From Nanobdellota archaeon (GTDB lineage Archaea; Nanobdellota; Nanobdellia; Nanobdellales; Nanobdellaceae): a stretch of DNA of 8,386 nucleotides. The notes under the pieces are model-generated. The model worked only from the letters and a program-made list of their open reading frames with translations, ran no database searches and had not been told where the DNA came from. How positions within the stretch are numbered: position 1 is the stretch's first letter; each line of letters starts with the position of its first letter. Location: positions 1 through 8,386 of the forward strand of contig JAIXNB010000013.1 in assembly GCA_020697515.1 (NCBI GenBank). The letters are read 5' to 3'. The position numbers and the translations under genes are program-made. This document shows, piece by piece, positions 629-8,386 of this stretch.

Positions 629-1198
629 TTATATCTTTAGGATGCCTTTTTCTATTAGTCTATCCATACTTCTTCTTAGTATCTTTCTAAAGATGGCTCT
701 CTTTTGAAGACCTCCTAGCTTCATTGCAGCTTTTCTAAGGCTTCCTTCATCTATCAAAATCTTCAAGTATTGTTTTTGTTTTTCTGTTAACTTATTATCA
801 TACTTTAAAGCTAATCTTGCTAACTCCATAAGATCTATTTTTAGACCCTTCCAAGCAAAATCCTCTGAGTTTATATCATCTCTAAAGATTTCTACAGGTT
901 CAAATCTTATTATAACTATTTCCCTGTTTTCCTTTATCCAGGGATAATGCTCTTTTAGAGCTCGAAATAATTCTTCTTTATTATTAAAACCATCTAACTG
1001 TGCTTCCTCATCAGTAATTTGATGAAGTTTCTTTGTATATATATCTAATATCTTAAATTTTCCAATAACTTTTCCACCAGCATGAACAATAACGATATCT
1101 CCCTTTCTTAAATTTGGTTTTTCTATACGTATTGTCAATCTTTTTTTCCCTGTTTTTAAAAGCTCTGTATATTTTCCATCAAACTGAAGATGTTTCAT
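629..1198 (-). CDS. ASCH (PUA-like) domain protein with C-terminal helix-turn-helix-like tail
   Basis: 189 aa ORF starting at ATG 1198. The N-terminal ~100 aa show ASCH hallmarks: LQFDGKYTELLKTGKKRLTIRIE, KGDIVIVHAGG, ITDEEAQLDGF, EELFRALKEHYP, IVIIRFEPV. These are colinear with E. coli YqfB as I remember it (AGRKTITIRD ... YVIEF). Residues 137-189 (LTEKQKQYLKILIDEGSLRKAAMKLGGLQKRAIFRKILRRSMDRLIEKG) resemble a sigma-70 region-4/LuxR-type HTH. Its stop is only 3 nt from the stop of the convergent Rpp30-like gene. Confidence 0.8.
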   Translation of the reverse strand: MKHLQFDGKYTELLKTGKKRLTIRIEKPNLRKGDIVIVHAGGKVIGKFKILDIYTKKLHQITDEEAQLDGFNNKEELFRALKEHYPWIKENREIVIIRFEPVEIFRDDINSEDFAWKGLKIDLMELARLALKYDNKLTEKQKQYLKILIDEGSLRKAAMKLGGLQKRAIFRKILRRSMDRLIEKGILKI

Positions 1199-1813: not shown

Positions 1814-1841
1814 TTTGTTAAGATGTTAACGTATCAGCAAC

Positions 1842-2711: not shown

Positions 2712-2761
2712 ATCCTCAGTAATTAAAATATAAATTTTTAAATATACAAACTTTGGAATAT

Positions 2762-3766
2762 ATGAAGAGAGGGTTATCGTTTATCGTGGAGATAATATTA
2801 CTACTAATCTTATTTATGATATATTTCAATCAATTATTCCCCAGCGTATCTTTACCAGAATATTATAATGAAATTGTAGATATTCTTTACTTAGATTCAT
2901 TAGCTTATTCACTTATAGATCAGAAAATAAAACAAATCCTAGACCATTTTGATGTAGATTTGATATATATTACATTTAAACAGGTTTTATCATCACGGTT
3001 TAGCCGGTTCTACATACGGCTACATTATTATGAACCAGTGTTTGTGAAGGGTGATGGAGATTGTATACTCTTTATGTATCCTCTTCCATATGAATCTTCT
3101 AGTATTGACTTAAAGATTTTTGGATGGGATGGGATACAATGCACAAATTTATCATATTCTAAAGATTGGTATATGTTTATAGTACATGGCCTAGATGATT
3201 CCTTAAGTAACCAAAATATTTCTATAGATATCAGTGAATATCCTACTTTAGATCCCTACTCCTTATTCTTGTTTGATATTGATGGAAATCCGCTAAAAAT
3301 AAACGCAATGGCGTTAGATAGTAGCTTTTTAAATTTGTCAATAGAGAGTCTGTATAATAGAGAGGTTATTATCATGGGGAGAGTTAAGAACAACATTATA
3401 GAGCAAAATCTAACATATCTAGCAGGTAGATATCCAATTGTTTCCAAAATCAAAAATGCGGTTAATGTACAATTTGTTATGACTCATTCATCTTGGATAA
3501 CACTTGCTATAGATAAAAATTGTTATTCTCGTGGAAGATTATTGATAAAGATATCATACCCTGAAAAAGGAATGATAGTAAACAAAAATTACAATATGAT
3601 AATGTGTAATAGCGCACAAATGGCGTACTATTCTACTATAAACTTCTTTAGACCATTCGTAGATATACTTAAAGTACAAGGAATGCATAAGGCAAGTTAC
3701 AAATATGGGAGTAGTATAACATTTCCGGGCCTAATCTATAATACTATAGATATATATGTCGCGTAG
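2762..3766 (+). CDS. Hypothetical exported or membrane-anchored protein with a type IV pilin-like (class III) signal-peptide-like N-terminus
   Basis: I prefer ATG 2762 over the track's TTG 2753. This gives MKRG|LSFIVEIILLLILFMIYF, a basic residue-Gly followed by a hydrophobic helix, close to the archaeal prepilin peptidase motif but not a perfect match. There is no other TM segment. It has 4 Cys and 4 N-x-S/T sequons. A TATA-like TTTTTAAATA lies about 27 nt upstream. I recognise no family. Confidence 0.6.
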   Translation: MKRGLSFIVEIILLLILFMIYFNQLFPSVSLPEYYNEIVDILYLDSLAYSLIDQKIKQILDHFDVDLIYITFKQVLSSRFSRFYIRLHYYEPVFVKGDGDCILFMYPLPYESSSIDLKIFGWDGIQCTNLSYSKDWYMFIVHGLDDSLSNQNISIDISEYPTLDPYSLFLFDIDGNPLKINAMALDSSFLNLSIESLYNREVIIMGRVKNNIIEQNLTYLAGRYPIVSKIKNAVNVQFVMTHSSWITLAIDKNCYSRGRLLIKISYPEKGMIVNKNYNMIMCNSAQMAYYSTINFFRPFVDILKVQGMHKASYKYGSSITFPGLIYNTIDIYVA

Positions 3767-4352
3767 TCAGTTATATCTAATTACCCTATTTCTATTGTTT
3801 TTCTACATTTCCTTATTTACAAATTATATATCCTTAATAGAACAAAATGCCTTGAAATATAGGAAATATTTTGAGAATCTTCTAACTATTTATAAAGTAG
3901 AAAATTTTCATAATCTATATAAAAAACTATATAGGATAAAGAATAGTACAGTATGTGGCTTAACCATATATTATAATTGTAGTAATAACAATGTTTCAAT
4001 TGAGAATCCAGGATTTAGTTATGCAGTTATTTTAGACGAAAATCTAAATTTTATGAATACTTCGGTTGATCAAAAATGGATAAACTTTACAGTAAATGAA
4101 AAGAGAATATATAATGTAAAACAAAATATATGTATTTTTAGAGGATATATTGCAACGATTAAAGAATTCAATAACATGCAACCAATAATCGGAACACGGG
4201 CTATACTATATATAATCGATAATTTATCCTCCCAAAACGTCTCTGAGGAGTTCTTGCTACTTGTTAATAAAATAGAAAAGGATTTTAATATCCGGCTAGT
4301 AAATGATACAATAGAATATTACAACAATTATTTTAGGATACTACTCCAATAA
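3756..4352 (+). CDS. Hypothetical N-terminally anchored or secreted protein, sequon-rich
   Basis: 198 aa. Its ATG overlaps the upstream ORF by 11 nt, which suggests an operon or translational coupling. The N-terminus MSRSQLYLITLFLLFFYISLF is a signal-anchor-like helix. There are 8 N-x-S/T sequons in 198 aa (NST, NCS, NVS, NTS, NFT, NLS, NVS, NDT). I recognise no family. Confidence 0.55.
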   Translation: MSRSQLYLITLFLLFFYISLFTNYISLIEQNALKYRKYFENLLTIYKVENFHNLYKKLYRIKNSTVCGLTIYYNCSNNNVSIENPGFSYAVILDENLNFMNTSVDQKWINFTVNEKRIYNVKQNICIFRGYIATIKEFNNMQPIIGTRAILYIIDNLSSQNVSEEFLLLVNKIEKDFNIRLVNDTIEYYNNYFRILLQ

Positions 4353-4470
4353 TACGTTACTTTGAGGATTTGTATATTCTTCGAGCAGCGGTATAGCATT
4401 ATCAAACTATTGTATATTTTAAGATAATAATTAAATTTTAAATGATCCCTCATCTTAAAAACACTCTATA

Positions 4471-4541
4471 ATATATCCTTAGGATATCCTGCCCTTAATA
4501 TTTTAACAACCTTCATAGATTATGTTAACATTAGTTAACAT
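4471..4541. repeat. Copy A of a 71+ bp perfect direct repeat (intergenic element)
   Basis: ATATATCCTTAGGATATCCTGCCCTTAATATTTTAACAACCTTCATAGATTATGTTAACATTAGTTAACAT is identical base-for-base to 8316-8386. The flanks to the left (4441-4470 vs 8286-8315) are unrelated. Identity to the right cannot be followed because copy B hits the window end. Confidence 0.95.
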
Positions 4542-4586
4542 GGTGTTAACATCTATTTAACATATTGTTAACAATAAAATTAACAT
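4503..4586. repeat. Phased array of seven TTAACA (mostly GTTAACAT) motifs at 10-12 bp spacing
   Basis: TTAACA starts at 4503, 4525, 4535, 4546, 4557, 4568 and 4580. Spacings are 22 (2x11), 10, 11, 11, 11 and 12. Four copies are preceded by G and five are followed by T. The copy at 4522-4531 is the full 10-bp palindrome ATGTTAACAT. The array ends 4 nt from the trm1 stop codon (4591-4593). Confidence 0.9.
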
Positions 4587-4590
4587 TGTG

Positions 4591-5700
4591 TTAGGTTGTA
4601 AAGATATCTTTTAAAATAGGGTACTCTCTAGATTTTATTGTTAGGGGTCCAAAGTGTGTTCTGACAGCATTGAATTGCTCGAGAATTCTTTCAATCTTAG
4701 GGATATTTGGTACTTTTTGAGATTTAGCTAACAGGCTTATATTATAATAGTACCATACATCTTTATACTTAAAATCTCCATTAAGAATTTTCAGTAGAAC
4801 ATCATGCGACTCTTTATGTAATGATCTACACCGTACAATACTGTTCACAAACAAGTTATCATATAAAGGGCCTATATATATTGGTCCAAGCATCTTCATC
4901 TGTTTTTTGCATAATGGGCAAATTTTCTCATCTACGGATTTATAATGACAGGCTGGACAATAATATATATGCTTTATGTTTCCCATGACGAAATTAACAT
5001 CCTTACTTTTCTTAGATTTAATAAAAAATATTCTATAGTGGTGTAAATAATAGTATCCGAATATAGGGATCATTGCTGCATCAAATCTCAGTGCTTCTTC
5101 AATTACATATTTTGCCAGAGTCCTTAATCCGAATTCTAAATAGAAATCTGTTCGAATTCCTAAGCAAGAGTATTTTCTATAACATGCTTTTGATCTAACT
5201 CCTGATAAAGCGGAAATATCTGTTGCAGTGACACCTAGCATACCTCTATTTCTCAATGATAAAACAGCTGGCTGGATAAACCCTACTGGGCTACCAAATG
5301 GATCTATGTCTATATAATCATATTTATTTTTTAGCATTAAAATACGGCAGTCTTCATTGGAAACATTGATATTTTCAAAATATATTCTATTAAGTTCTAA
5401 ATTTTTCTTTATAAAATATATAGCATTATTATTTATATCATTTATCACAATTCGTTCTATTACTTCTGGGATCTCTAAAAGTATCCTTATACTCCTAATA
5501 CCAGACCCTGCCATCGCATCTAAAATAGTTAGTCTTTTTCTGTATATATCAGAATAAGTTTTTAAAGCAGCAATTGTAAAATCTCTATTTATTCTCATTT
5601 TAGGATTATAAAATACTCCCACCCGTCTAGAAAGTTTCTTCAACCATTCTTCGGAATAGATTATTTTAGCAGATCCTTCAGATATTATAGTAAATTCCAT
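4591..5700 (-). CDS. trm1: tRNA (guanine(26)-N2)-dimethyltransferase Trm1
   Basis: 369 aa with the Trm1 hallmarks: VFYNPKMRINRD, SAM-binding ILDAMAGSGIRSIR, IDIDPFGSP, and a C-terminal Cys cluster CPACH...CPLC (zinc finger). Length is typical for archaeal Trm1. Confidence 0.95.
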   Translation of the reverse strand: MEFTIISEGSAKIIYSEEWLKKLSRRVGVFYNPKMRINRDFTIAALKTYSDIYRKRLTILDAMAGSGIRSIRILLEIPEVIERIVINDINNNAIYFIKKNLELNRIYFENINVSNEDCRILMLKNKYDYIDIDPFGSPVGFIQPAVLSLRNRGMLGVTATDISALSGVRSKACYRKYSCLGIRTDFYLEFGLRTLAKYVIEEALRFDAAMIPIFGYYYLHHYRIFFIKSKKSKDVNFVMGNIKHIYYCPACHYKSVDEKICPLCKKQMKMLGPIYIGPLYDNLFVNSIVRCRSLHKESHDVLLKILNGDFKYKDVWYYYNISLLAKSQKVPNIPKIERILEQFNAVRTHFGPLTIKSREYPILKDIFTT

Positions 5701-5798: not shown

Positions 5799-5873
5799 GC
5801 CCCCGTCGTCTAGCCAGGTCTAGGATGCGGGGTTTTCGTCCCCGAGACCCGGGTTCGAATCCCGGCGGGGGCA
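5799..5873 (+). tRNA. tRNA-Glu (anticodon UUC), intronless, CCA not encoded
   Basis: Hand-folded cloverleaf of 75 nt. Acceptor is GCCCCCG/CGGGGGC and the discriminator is A. D stem is GUCU/GGAU with an 11-nt loop containing GG, and position 26 is G. Anticodon stem is CGGGG/CCCCG with loop UU-UUC-GU. The variable loop is AGAC. T arm is CCGGG-UUCGAAU-CCCGG. T-rich runs follow at 5882-5886 and 5897-5900. Confidence 0.96.
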
Positions 5874-5910: not shown

Positions 5911-8277
5911 TTACTTTTCTTTTAACCAATTAAATATCTTTTTAGCCCCCTTCTTTATTTTTCTTCTAGCTTCCCCGACTTTAATATCAAAATATTTTGC
6001 AACTTTCCTCATACTCCAGGCTAAATAAATTTTTGATATTAATAATAACTCCTCTTCCTTGGTTAGTTTTGGCCTATCTTTTTTGGTATACATAAAATAG
6101 TATGTTGTTAGGTTTCGAACTATATCTGCTGCAGCCTCATAAGTCATGGGTCCTCTAAAATATACTTTGGCTCTTTGTATTTGGTTATCGGTTAGTAATG
6201 GGTTGAAATGAGGTTCATGTTCATAAGGAGTTTGTAGAAGTTGCCAGATTAATTCAGGAGTCATATCGAAGAATACATCAGTTATTTGATTTAAGAATCT
6301 CCATCTAAACTCGTAATTTAGCTTTCTTACTATTTTGTTAGTTTTTTCATCGAGTGGTTTTAATACTATAACAGAATACTCCCCAGAAACTCTGTTTTTC
6401 TCTGGGGATATATGAACTACTACAAAACCATTTTTCTGCCAAAATCTTAAAAGTTCAACTGTTGCTCCAAATCCAGAGCCTAACCAATTATATTTAATAT
6501 TCTCAGCCCAAATAGATAGCTCGCGTAGCGCCGTAGATCCTAAGCCCTTGCCCTGAGCTTCGGGATGGGTAGCAATTCTAACAATTCTTAATCCTTTTAG
6601 TTTAGGAAACTCAGTTTCCCTATAATGTTTTGCAATTACGTCCGGAATTATGTTACCTTTGGGTTTATAATCCTTTAGCATTCTTTTGATAGTATCTTCC
6701 GGAATATTTCCTTCATACGCTACTTGTATAGCTGTTACAATCTTATTAGATCCTAATTCAAGTGAAAATCCATCATGATGTGGCGCATCGGCTATCATGG
6801 CGATATCATTGGGTCTATTTTGATAATGTGCCAAGATATATATCCCGACGAACTGCCTAAGTTTTTCCTCTTCTTTTTCAAACCACTTTTCTAGAGGAAT
6901 TTTGTAAAATATTGTAGCTTTTTCCTTTATCTGTTGTAAATCCTTTTCATCCAAATGGGCGGGTTCAGCATCTAATAATAGTGTATCAAACAGCCATTTT
7001 TCAATTGGGTCATTATCATTATATCTTATTGGCTCTTTCATTTTATACTCATATACCTTAAAATTCGTATTTTCCTTTAGATGTTTTAGGAACCTTACTG
7101 AAAAGGATCTTCCAGCTCCCTCATAACCATGGATAGTTGAAGAAAACACTAACTTCTTATATTTTTTTAAATAATCGTATAAAATAGTAACACTTATACC
7201 TGCAGCTTCATCCACAAATAGAAAATTATATTTTTTATCCAAGATATTTAATGGTTCTCTATATTCTATGAAGATCTTATTTTTTATAGAGAGCTTCTTC
7301 TTAGATACTTTTTTGAAATTTATATTTAATTTTTTTAGCCCTATCTCCAAGAACTCGAACAGTGTTTCTATATTGTCAAAAGATGGAGAAGTTATTCCAA
7401 TGTCCCACTTTCCTTTTTTATCTAAAAGTATTTCTGTTAAACCTGCTATTGCTAGTCCTAAAACTGCGCTCTTACCTCTCCCTCTATCAGCAATCACAAC
7501 ATAAGCTTTCCTATCTTTATCTAGCAATCCCTCTAATAACTTTAGCACTTCTATTTGATCTTGTGTATATGCAACCCTATATATTCTCTCCGAGAAAAGT
7601 GTATCTGAGGGAAGAATTATCTTTTTTCTCTCAGGAAATATCACATCTCTTTCTACTTTTTTTTCAGGCCCCTTTATTACACCCTTTTTGACATCATAGA
7701 TGTATATTCCTCTATGTTCCAAGAGTTTTCTTTTGAATCTTTTTTCAAATATTTTTCTAACATCCTTAAGTTCATAGGGAGGAGTTAGTAGATGCTTATG
7801 GAAGGTAGTATAAACCTGTTCAAAGTTCTCAAAATCTTCTATTAACATAAATATTACCCCCCCACCTCTAACTGTTCCAACTAACCTCCCTAAATCATCT
7901 GGAGTAAGACTTCTATACATGTCTAGAATTAAAAAATCATATGTTTTACCCATATATTCTTTTGAATTCCTATATTTACCTCTCTTTATCTTTAAATATG
8001 ATAAATCTTCTCTGTTTATAAGATCTTTAAATTCACTATATCTTTTTAAGTAATCTCCATGATAGTCCTCAGTAACATACAAACCTATTACTTCACTTTT
8101 AAAATTATACATAATCTTTGCATATGAAAGTACCATATTTGCTAGCAACCTCTCATAATTTCTTCCAGATAGAACAACTAATCTCCTATGATTGTTCTGT
8201 ATTGCCTCTGCAACAGCAGATTCAAACAAATCCTTCAAATCTTTTGGTAAGTCATATTCAGCATTAACTAACACCAT
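5911..8277 (-). CDS. tmcA: tRNA/RNA cytidine N4-acetyltransferase TmcA (archaeal Nat10 homologue)
   Basis: 788 aa. It has the N-terminal HRRLVVLSGR (DUF1726-type) region, helicase Walker A ADRGRGKSAVLG, Walker B FLFVDEAAGI and GNAT acetyl-CoA motif RIVRIATHPEAQGKGLGSTAL, followed by a helical C-terminal RNA-binding region. The domain order matches TmcA/Nat10. Confidence 0.95.
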   Translation of the reverse strand: MVLVNAEYDLPKDLKDLFESAVAEAIQNNHRRLVVLSGRNYERLLANMVLSYAKIMYNFKSEVIGLYVTEDYHGDYLKRYSEFKDLINREDLSYLKIKRGKYRNSKEYMGKTYDFLILDMYRSLTPDDLGRLVGTVRGGGVIFMLIEDFENFEQVYTTFHKHLLTPPYELKDVRKIFEKRFKRKLLEHRGIYIYDVKKGVIKGPEKKVERDVIFPERKKIILPSDTLFSERIYRVAYTQDQIEVLKLLEGLLDKDRKAYVVIADRGRGKSAVLGLAIAGLTEILLDKKGKWDIGITSPSFDNIETLFEFLEIGLKKLNINFKKVSKKKLSIKNKIFIEYREPLNILDKKYNFLFVDEAAGISVTILYDYLKKYKKLVFSSTIHGYEGAGRSFSVRFLKHLKENTNFKVYEYKMKEPIRYNDNDPIEKWLFDTLLLDAEPAHLDEKDLQQIKEKATIFYKIPLEKWFEKEEEKLRQFVGIYILAHYQNRPNDIAMIADAPHHDGFSLELGSNKIVTAIQVAYEGNIPEDTIKRMLKDYKPKGNIIPDVIAKHYRETEFPKLKGLRIVRIATHPEAQGKGLGSTALRELSIWAENIKYNWLGSGFGATVELLRFWQKNGFVVVHISPEKNRVSGEYSVIVLKPLDEKTNKIVRKLNYEFRWRFLNQITDVFFDMTPELIWQLLQTPYEHEPHFNPLLTDNQIQRAKVYFRGPMTYEAAADIVRNLTTYYFMYTKKDRPKLTKEEELLLISKIYLAWSMRKVAKYFDIKVGEARRKIKKGAKKIFNWLKEK

Positions 8278-8315
8278 TTTAACCCTTGATATAAAAATAA
8301 TTTTATTTTAATAAT

Positions 8316-8386
8316 ATATATCCTTAGGATATCCTGCCCTTAATATTTTAACAACCTTCATAGATTATGTTAACATTAGTTAACAT
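8316..8386. repeat. Copy B of the 71+ bp perfect direct repeat, truncated by the window end
   Basis: Identical to 4471-4541 at an offset of exactly 3845 bp. It begins 39 nt upstream of the tmcA start codon (8277), so it occupies the tmcA upstream region. The visible TTAACA motifs are at 8348, 8370 and 8380. Confidence 0.95.

Follow-up and report, generated by a model that had tools for sequence, protein, structure and literature searches.

The window, that is, the whole stretch of 8,386 nucleotides that was analysed, holds a cluster of TTAACA hexamers between two convergent genes, one coding for a protein of 198 amino acids and the other being trm1. This TTAACA array is one part of a larger non-coding DNA element of about 125 bp, in which two GATATC-type boxes are followed by a TTAAYAT/TTAACA pair, here called the leader pair, and then by TTAACAT direct repeats that extend into the trm1 stop codon. 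A block of 102 bp of the element (copy B) is present a second time (copy A) upstream of tmcA. The features around copy B are the following.

3756-4352, plus strand: gene for the 198-aa protein, convergent with trm1
4471-4572: copy B, a 102-bp block 100% identical to copy A, flanked by the convergent 198-aa gene and trm1
4472-4488: two GATATC-type boxes, 11 bp apart (TATATC at 4472-4477, GATATC at 4483-4488)
4495-4509, plus strand: leader pair, 8 bp apart (TTAATAT at 4495-4501, TTAACAA at 4503-4509)
4525-4586, plus strand: core array of six TTAACAW units on a lattice of about 11 bp (starts at 4525, 4535, 4546, 4557, 4568 and 4580)
4589-4595, plus strand: degenerate last unit TGTTAGG, overlapping the trm1 stop codon (4591-4593, minus strand)
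4591-5700, minus strand: trm1 (Pfam TRM, E = 1.6e-85)
5799-5873, strand opposite to tmcA and trm1: tRNA-Glu (Rfam scan)

The element has a G+C content of 25%, as compared to 30% for the window, and no open reading frame of 20 amino acids or more was found within the array. In this species, both boxes jointly form a 15-bp palindrome, ATATCCTTAGGATAT (4473-4487). The 198-aa protein and its 334-aa neighbour both have pilin-like N-terminal signal/transmembrane segments, are rich in N-x-S/T sequons and are without a Pfam match. The 118-bp spacer between the 198-aa gene and the element (4353-4470) was considered as a site of a small open reading frame or non-coding RNA and discarded, as it is missing in relatives and resembles a decayed duplicate of the 3' end of the 198-aa gene.

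To judge from its proteins, the host is Candidatus Nanopusillus (Nanoarchaeota), a tiny archaeon of hot springs or vents: identical or near-identical proteins occur in Candidatus Nanopusillus sp. (MAG GCA_015662215.1), and more remote homologues are found in Nanopusillaceae and Nanobdella. A split reverse gyrase is consistent with Nanoarchaeota, and reverse gyrase is a marker of hyperthermophiles. Nanoarchaeota and other DPANN symbionts possess tiny genomes with few recognisable regulators and very short intergenic regions, and hardly anything is known of how these organisms regulate their genes or organise their chromosomes. A scan for sigma-70 promoters and terminators was set aside as irrelevant for an archaeal host. 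A parent contig of 25.7 kb (L001; ENA metagenome assembly ERZ27236680, k127_29727) was reached via the TmcA and ASCH proteins, and its gene neighbourhood includes GINS, a RecJ/Cdc45-like protein, NurA-HerA and the N-terminal half of reverse gyrase. No regulator or other DNA-binding gene linked to the element was found. The tail of the ASCH protein had been described as HTH-like, but its matches to HTH families fall far short of the cut-offs (E = 0.061 for Pfam UPF0122 and E = 0.0014 in NCBIfam), and a link between this tail and the array would be speculative.

On the plus strand, TTAACA starts at 4503, 4525, 4535, 4546, 4557, 4568 and 4580, so that the seven hexamers span 4503-4585 with spacings of 22, 10, 11, 11, 11 and 12 bp between successive starts, and one lattice position, between the first unit (4503) and the remaining six, is empty (the sequence of 4500-4595 is TTTTAACAACCTTCATAGATTATGTTAACATTAGTTAACATGGTGTTAACATCTATTTAACATATTGTTAACAATAAAATTAACATTGTGTTAGG). 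The seven phased hexamers reported in the initial annotation are therefore present, and the array abuts trm1 as described there, the stop codon falling within the degenerate last unit; the two boxes to the left of the array and the second copy had gone unnoticed. Clustering and phasing go far beyond chance, as had been estimated from composition: up to seven same-strand hexamers occur per 90 bp, as compared to three at most in 2000 dinucleotide-preserving shuffles, and the whole window contains 22 copies on both strands versus 9.1 +/- 3.1 in dinucleotide shuffles. Phase coherence, expressed as resultant length, is best at 11 bp (0.96) and declines to 0.82 at 10.5 bp and to 0.37 at 10 bp, and between 4523 and 4593 Tandem Repeats Finder detects repeats with periods of 11 bp and 22 bp. 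The earlier placement of all units on one face of the helix holds approximately, but the period is 11.0 bp rather than 10.5 bp. With units of 7-8 bp and linkers of 3-4 bp the array is indeed unlike CRISPR, in which repeats of about 23-50 bp alternate with unique spacers of similar length, and its short direct repeats about one helical turn apart resemble the sites of cooperative DNA binders, as had been proposed. Units 1, 3 and 5 of the core array are extended palindromes of the form WTGTTAACAW, giving rise to a super-period of 22 bp that is found in this species only. Intrinsic curvature, which had been suggested as a check, was unremarkable for the array (11th-83rd percentile of the window) in a rough wedge model, a weak result that carries no weight here. 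The array is present in contigs from six independent assemblies and is therefore not an assembly artefact.

Homologues of Trm1 and the 198-aa protein gave access to related lineages, four of which (L009, L250, L251 and L252) carry the element at the same junction between the 198-aa gene and trm1. In the case of L009, whose Trm1 is 82% identical, the array lies directly past the trm1 stop codon with its last unit 5 bp away, and the contig ends inside the array. In L250 and L251, whose 198-aa proteins are 74% and 73% identical, the boxes are located 2-12 bp past the stop codon of the 198-aa gene, and these contigs also end inside the element. The intergenic region is complete in L252 (198-aa protein 66% identical), which carries two inverted units (ATGTTAA) ahead of the direct run. 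The units of the core array match one-to-one between the window and L252, L009 and L251; the five distal units in L252 and L009 are spaced by exactly 11 bp, and in L251, where 40 bp are deleted from one unit to another, the phase is almost unchanged. Pairwise comparisons gave the following identities.

Window and L252: element 100/120 identical (83%); synonymous-type third positions 38/76 (50%), all third positions 56%; Fisher p = 1e-6
L009 and L252: array 60/65 (92%); all third positions 54%; Fisher p = 4e-8
Window and L009: array 48/57 (84%); synonymous-type third positions 83/121 (69%); Fisher p = 0.03

When the alignment of the window with L252 was divided into windows of 40 nt, the central array (4524-4563) scored best (0.88), single coding windows reaching up to 0.85. 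Among the few close lineages compared, these alignments indicate a conservation of the element on a par with that of coding sequence and clearly higher than that of neutral sites. Absence of the array from orthologous loci with conserved flanking genes had been named as the outcome that would speak against the proposal; instead, it is kept in four lineages and is much more conserved than synonymous sites. Its range is narrow: neither the array nor intergenic DNA was found at this locus in L010, L254, L255 and L256 (Trm1 about 59-60% identical), and the element is missing there because trm1 and the convergent gene overlap.

The boxes read AGATATCCTTAAGATATC in L250, L251 and L252, where their spacing of 11 bp is unchanged, and the leader pair in the relatives reads TTAACATTTTAACA. 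The anatomy that is conserved consists of AATAATAGATATCCTTAAGATATC, next TACCCTTAACATTTTAACA, then a variable stretch of about 30 bp, and then TTAACATGGTGTTAACATCYATTTAACATA..TTAAC.ATA..ATTAACA. The suggestion that a palindromic GTTAAC core points to a dimeric binder did not survive this comparison. Only four of the seven TTAACA units in the window carry GTTAAC, and the base preceding TTAACAT in the relatives can be G, T, C or A; what is conserved as a core is therefore the asymmetric head-to-tail heptamer TTAACAT and not the palindrome. A cluster of methylation sites of a restriction-modification system (GTTAAC or GATATC) was likewise rejected, as GTTAAC is not conserved in the relatives.

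The second copy lies 3.8 kb from the first in direct orientation, so that copies A and B flank tmcA, the tRNA-Glu gene and trm1. The features around copy A, together with two further places at which the motif occurs as a pair, are the following.

8275-8277, minus strand: ATG of tmcA
8300-8311, minus strand: predicted tmcA TATA box TTAAAATAAAAT, at -34 to -23 from the tmcA ATG, assigned by position
8300-8323, minus strand: flank of copy A, ATTTTATTTTAATAATATATATCC, matching the copy-B flank of L252 (ATTTTATTTCAATAATAGATATCC)
8316-8386: copy A, running off the window end, 100% identical to 4471-4541 (repeat search)
Beside copy A: gene for the N-terminal half of reverse gyrase (NCBIfam rgy, E = 1e-155, model positions 6-556 of 1172)
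1816-1830, minus strand: possible short extra site GTTAACATCTTAACA, immediately preceding the TATA box of archease, with 8-bp spacing as in the leader
16210/16221 of contig L003, outside the window: pair TTAACATTACTTTAACA, with 11-bp spacing, upstream of the nurA TATA box

The parent contig contains the full 102 bp of copy A (L001 8230-8331; the copy B block corresponds to L001 12075-12176), comprising five TTAACA-type units, the leader of about 50 bp and both boxes. Copy A is located between the stop codon of the reverse-gyrase N-half gene and tmcA, and it ends 38 bp upstream of the tmcA ATG. It was found in a single assembly only, in which the 102-bp repeat is spanned by 127-mers, and its junctions are therefore read-supported. 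Copy B of the same species is present in five more assemblies (L004-L008) with 99-100% identity; in L004 it contains a 1-bp insertion in an outer unit, and the contig of L006 ends inside the array. L002 and L253, the closest relatives that were available (TmcA proteins 75-77% identical), have no copy A ahead of tmcA. Comparison of the lineages indicates that a small clade inherited copy B from its ancestor and that copy A arose recently by partial copying. Homology of the window to L009 ends about 40 bp upstream of trm1, so that the neighbourhood of tmcA and tRNA-Glu is specific to this species, and the synteny of tmcA varies among lineages.

Relative to tmcA, copy A extends from about -140 to -39, next to the predicted TATA box. 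TTAAAATAAAAT is predicted to be this box from its position: roughly twelve other genes on the contig have a T/A box at about -36 to -20, which agrees with leaderless mRNAs. The flank of copy A is closer to the copy-B flank of L252 than to the copy-B flank of its own species. As this flank, homologous to that of copy B in L252, holds the predicted TATA box, the duplicated element appears to have supplied the core promoter of tmcA. Apart from both elements, the 25.7-kb contig contains 30 TTAACA hexamers on both strands, among which just two same-strand pairs 6-12 bp apart occur; at least two such pairs were obtained in 4 of 1000 shuffles (p about 0.004). The pairs at archease and nurA are a suggestive, if thin, indication of a promoter-associated motif.

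The reading that we favour, tentatively and with a confidence that falls somewhat short of even, is that this selectively constrained, lineage-specific cis-acting element is a cooperative protein-binding array that serves at tmcA as an operator or upstream control site. The two GATATC boxes and about 8-10 direct repeats of the TTAACAT type on their 11-bp lattice would constitute a binding platform, onto which one or two sequence-specific DNA-binding proteins would load head-to-tail on successive turns of the helix; once loaded, they would form a cooperative nucleoprotein filament, a second protein possibly occupying the GATATC boxes. On copy A such a filament would lie directly upstream of the tmcA core promoter and could act as an operator or upstream control array; ancestral copy B fills the gap between two convergent genes. 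Transcriptional control would be the most likely role because copy A is located at the tmcA promoter and motif pairs are found at two further promoters. Copy B does not fit neatly with transcriptional control, as it is placed between two gene ends with no downstream gene to regulate. Two bolder versions, namely that the element is a self-contained, movable control cassette (array plus TATA box) which a genome-reduced nanoarchaeon copies to other loci to rewire expression, as at tmcA, or that it is the first recognisable chromosomal partition or fork-barrier site of Nanoarchaeota, seem distinctly unlikely.

Copying of the element to a new place might also be the behaviour of a selfish or neutral dispersed repeat without host function. 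It would be a segmental duplicate or a small non-autonomous element, which entered the junction of trm1 and the 198-aa gene in the ancestor of the clade and was recently copied to tmcA. Such an origin is unlikely in our estimation, and it draws on the restriction of the element to close lineages (L010, L254, L255 and L256 lacking it), on the 100% identity over 102 bp of two copies 3.8 kb apart, the second of which is not upstream of tmcA in L002 and L253, on the unlike synteny of tmcA between lineages, and on four contigs (L006, L009, L250 and L251) that end inside the element, as expected of multi-copy or length-variable DNA. The 25.7-kb contig contains two copies; that contigs of four assemblies break within the element is a hint of additional copies or of length variation. 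Terminal inverted repeats or target-site duplications are nevertheless not seen at the boundaries of copies A and B, and the same orthologous position in five lineages, units that correspond one-to-one and conservation far above that of synonymous sites are unexpected of a neutral insert. Searches with exact 19- to 24-mers of the element returned no match in genome, metagenome and viral collections; these included 22- to 24-mers of leader and boxes, the metagenome collection being incomplete in this respect, as its scan missed the element-bearing JGI contig L004, and the conserved 19-mer TTAACATGGTGTTAACATC, with no viral match. The composite element was not found in viral contigs either: none of the 36 viral matches to the box pattern adjoined a TTAACA cluster, and phage and plasmid records searched by blastn yielded chance-level matches only (E about 0.1-0.4). 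The pattern ATGTTAA-N4 repeated three times matched more than 119 contigs in the viral collection and had more than 120 matches in the metagenome collection, none of them with the leader. A composition-matched control 7-mer, TAAGTAT, had 97 viral matches, so that matches to the bare pattern represent a background of 11-bp tandem repeats and carry no signal of relatedness. This same abundance of phased 11-bp triplets of AT-rich 7-mers in public contigs, together with the tandem 11-bp architecture and the variable number of units (the 40-bp unit-to-unit deletion in L251 and the 1-bp indel in an outer unit of L004), would agree with a neutral minisatellite that arose from replication slippage. 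We nonetheless consider slippage very improbable as an explanation: the linkers differ within one array and are conserved between species (GGTG, CYAT), which is the opposite of concerted slippage, the non-repeat parts (boxes and leader) are conserved as well, and the excess of conservation over synonymous sites is at odds with neutrality.

The conservation of the element throughout, linkers included, could also be that of an RNA-level element, such as a small or antisense RNA that starts within the element and has UUAACAU repeats (antisense to the 3' ends of trm1 or of the 198-aa gene) or a protein-bound UTR element. Its T/A-rich promoter-like stretches would be compatible with transcription, and the fold of the plus strand is more stable than that of shuffled sequences (-32.2 kcal/mol, z = -4.5). 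This fold, however, arises from self-complementary GTTAAC units that pair with each other and that are mostly non-palindromic in the relatives, and the consensus fold of two full-length orthologues is only -11.1 kcal/mol with AU-rich helices. Conserved C/D or H/ACA boxes were not seen by inspection, an Rfam search of the element gave no match at E <= 1 (only tRNA-Glu was found in the scan), and the G+C content of 25% contrasts with the G+C-rich tRNA of this reverse-gyrase-bearing genome of hyperthermophile type. The lack of an open reading frame and of an Rfam match, and the low G+C content in an organism with reverse gyrase, argue for a function at the level of DNA rather than of RNA structure, and we give the RNA-level explanation a low probability. 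A DNA-level function might instead be that of a chromosome-maintenance site, that is, an origin, a centromere-like partition site or a polar fork barrier, to which an initiator, adaptor or contrahelicase would bind as it does at iterons, parC or Ter arrays. R1 parC and plasmid iterons are built from direct repeats of 11 or 22 bp, the element is intergenic between convergent genes with many replication and repair genes nearby, and its strong conservation would suit such a role. The called genes of the 25.7-kb contig, on the other hand, include no orc1/cdc6, rep, parA, parM or segAB gene, the adjacent hypothetical genes encode pilin-like membrane proteins and not partition proteins, relatives of about 60% Trm1 identity have no intergenic DNA at this locus, and a duplicated origin or centromere at a distance of 3.8 kb would be unusual. 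In archaeal oriC, ORB-type repeats flank an unwinding element at a conserved locus, commonly next to orc1/cdc6, and the motif is presumably without resemblance to ORB or mini-ORB repeats. A maintenance site is therefore improbable, and the likeness to plasmid iterons or partition centromeres that had been put forward did not hold up with trm1 and two pilin-like genes as neighbours. Two specific forms of this idea were rejected. The genes for the 334-aa and 198-aa proteins, taken as a ParM/ParR-like pair with the array as parC, encode proteins with pilin-like N-termini and without a Pfam match. The dif architecture consists of imperfect inverted arms of 11 bp with a 6-bp spacer and is unique in a genome (PMC2958812). 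The boxes of the element measure 6 bp each and are separated by a spacer of 5 bp (in this species a loop of 3 bp), inspection showed no 11-6-11 arrangement, and two direct copies are present.

Returning to the protein-binding array as the preferred explanation, the element would offer a defined bait for finding a nanoarchaeal DNA-binding protein, and it may exemplify the acquisition of a promoter through duplication of a regulatory module. Even if it were a selfish repeat only, it would still account for the recurrent contig breaks in the assemblies of this lineage. The literature searched on origins and promoters of Nanopusillus, on tandem repeats of Nanoarchaeota and on the motif contained nothing pertinent, and it describes no cis-regulatory element for this lineage.

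Several known systems show a comparable layout. Bacterial REP/BIME sequences and archaeal MITEs are likewise short, non-coding, repeated more than once and located where convergent genes end, and they too interrupt assemblies; in contrast to these, the present element is without terminal inverted repeats or target duplication, consists of phased direct repeats and has an orthologous copy that is constrained. The iterons of theta plasmids (R6K, RK2, pPS10, F and P1) also have an asymmetric head-to-tail core and a phasing of one or two helical turns, here seen as the 22-bp super-period. Helically phased tandem direct repeats are thus found here as in iterons (seven units on an 11-bp lattice), but the units of 7-8 bp are shorter than the classical 17-22 bp, no rep gene and no recognisable unwinding element or DnaA/ORB boxes accompany them, and housekeeping genes lie to either side. 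In R1 parC, short direct repeats spaced by about 11 bp adjoin or surround a promoter, and small dimeric proteins that bind them in a cooperative manner form a helical filament. R1 parC (ParMRC type II) and other repeat arrays bound by ribbon-helix-helix proteins, namely the omega heptads of pSM19035 and the ParG boxes of TP228, have a period of about 11 bp and an array length comparable to those of the element, which differs from the parC systems in having no parM/parR or other partition gene nearby, in its location on a nanoarchaeal chromosome and in its second motif, the GATATC boxes.

Helically spaced short sites closely upstream of or overlapping BRE/TATA are also known in archaea: the tandem repeats of 11 bp to which SSV1 F55 binds, the TRP boxes of TrpY and the regularly spaced boxes of the Lrp-type regulators Ss-LrpB and Ptr2. 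Their motif sequences are unrelated to the one described here, and copy B, unlike these arrays, is not promoter-proximal. A repeated motif at helical spacing is present in the element as in these archaeal operator arrays, and their site placement would be like that of copy A at the predicted tmcA promoter. The element is real, non-random, conserved, duplicated and non-coding, and with a function that would be exerted through bound proteins it is a fresh instance of a known architecture with a narrow phylogenetic range.

The element, a stretch of about 125 bp of non-coding DNA, is interrupted by a contig end in four independent assemblies, at position 1 of L006 (same species, other assembly) and at positions 1311, 2480 and 1663 of L009, L250 and L251 (related lineages), respectively. 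In practice, the element breaks assemblies of the Nanopusillus lineage, and these contig ends suggest either more genomic copies or variation of the unit number at the population level. When L010, a relative without the array (Trm1 59% identical), was compared with the parent contig L003, the trm1-to-ASCH block was inverted relative to the S15-RecJ-57aa-245aa block, and therefore synteny near trm1 and tmcA is fluid in the family.

Features located on the side of copy B that faces away from trm1 are as follows (window coordinates).
2753-3766: hypothetical gene, overlapping the next
3756-4352: hypothetical gene encoding 198 aa
4353-4470: 118-bp spacer from the stop of the 198-aa gene to the GATATC-type boxes of the element
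4328-4453, minus strand: unconserved 41-aa ORF in the spacer

The spacer is missing in relatives and the minus-strand ORF is not conserved. Local alignment indicates that the spacer is similar to the 3' end of the 198-aa gene in L251 (a similarity reached by 2 of 500 shuffles), and TCTTAAAAACA, located beside the boxes, is common to both. The spacer probably arose by partial duplication followed by decay. The proteins predicted from the two overlapping genes display N-termini resembling type IV pilins or class III signals (MKRGLSFIVEIILLLILF... and MSRSQLYLITLFLLFF...) and numerous N-x-S/T sequons, and no Pfam family was detected for either of them. Both genes evolve fast: between lineages with 82% identity in Trm1, their identity is 66-74%.

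Outside the two elements, TTAACA pairs were encountered at two predicted promoters.
Window 1816-1830, minus strand: TTAACA pair of archease, directly upstream of a predicted TATA box
L003 16210-16227: TTAACA pair of nurA, directly upstream of a predicted TATA box
L003 15735-16268, outside the window: 534-bp intergenic region upstream of nurA

The archease and nurA pairs are the sole such pairs in the remainder of the 25.7 kb, and two were reached in 4 of 1000 shuffles. The region upstream of nurA also contains G+C-rich self-complementary blocks, such as CCCCGCCCATCGAAACCGATGATCA...CCAGCGGGGC and GAGAGAGGAC...GTCCTAAAGGGAGAGGG, against a genomic G+C content of about 30%. No Rfam match was obtained in this region, and the blocks are probably unannotated structured RNAs.

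Among the viral and metagenome contigs (L011-L249), ATGTTAA arrays with 11-bp spacing occur in the intergenic DNA of many phage contigs, and one example, AAATGTTAAAGAAATGTTAAAATTATGTTAAAG, was found again in related contigs. The number of phage arrays is similar to that of a control motif. They are not related to the Nanopusillus element, and the recurrent ones may be operator or origin repeats.

Three further genes were noted.
Window 629-1198: ASCH-domain protein
Window 5911-8277: TmcA, the ac4C-forming acetyltransferase
L003 976-2754, just past the window end: reverse gyrase, helicase half (NCBIfam rgy)

The genes for the ASCH protein, whose C-terminal 85 residues gave only sub-threshold HTH matches, and for TmcA lie about 5 kb apart. 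Because YqfB, a bacterial ASCH protein, hydrolyses N4-acetylcytidine, the two proteins may have a functional link through ac4C metabolism. The reverse gyrase gene, located upstream of copy A with its stop 27 bp from that copy, encodes the N-terminal helicase half only (E = 1e-155, model positions 6-556 of 1172). The reverse gyrase of the parent contig is of the split type and marks a hyperthermophile-type genome. A split reverse gyrase is known in Nanoarchaeum equitans.
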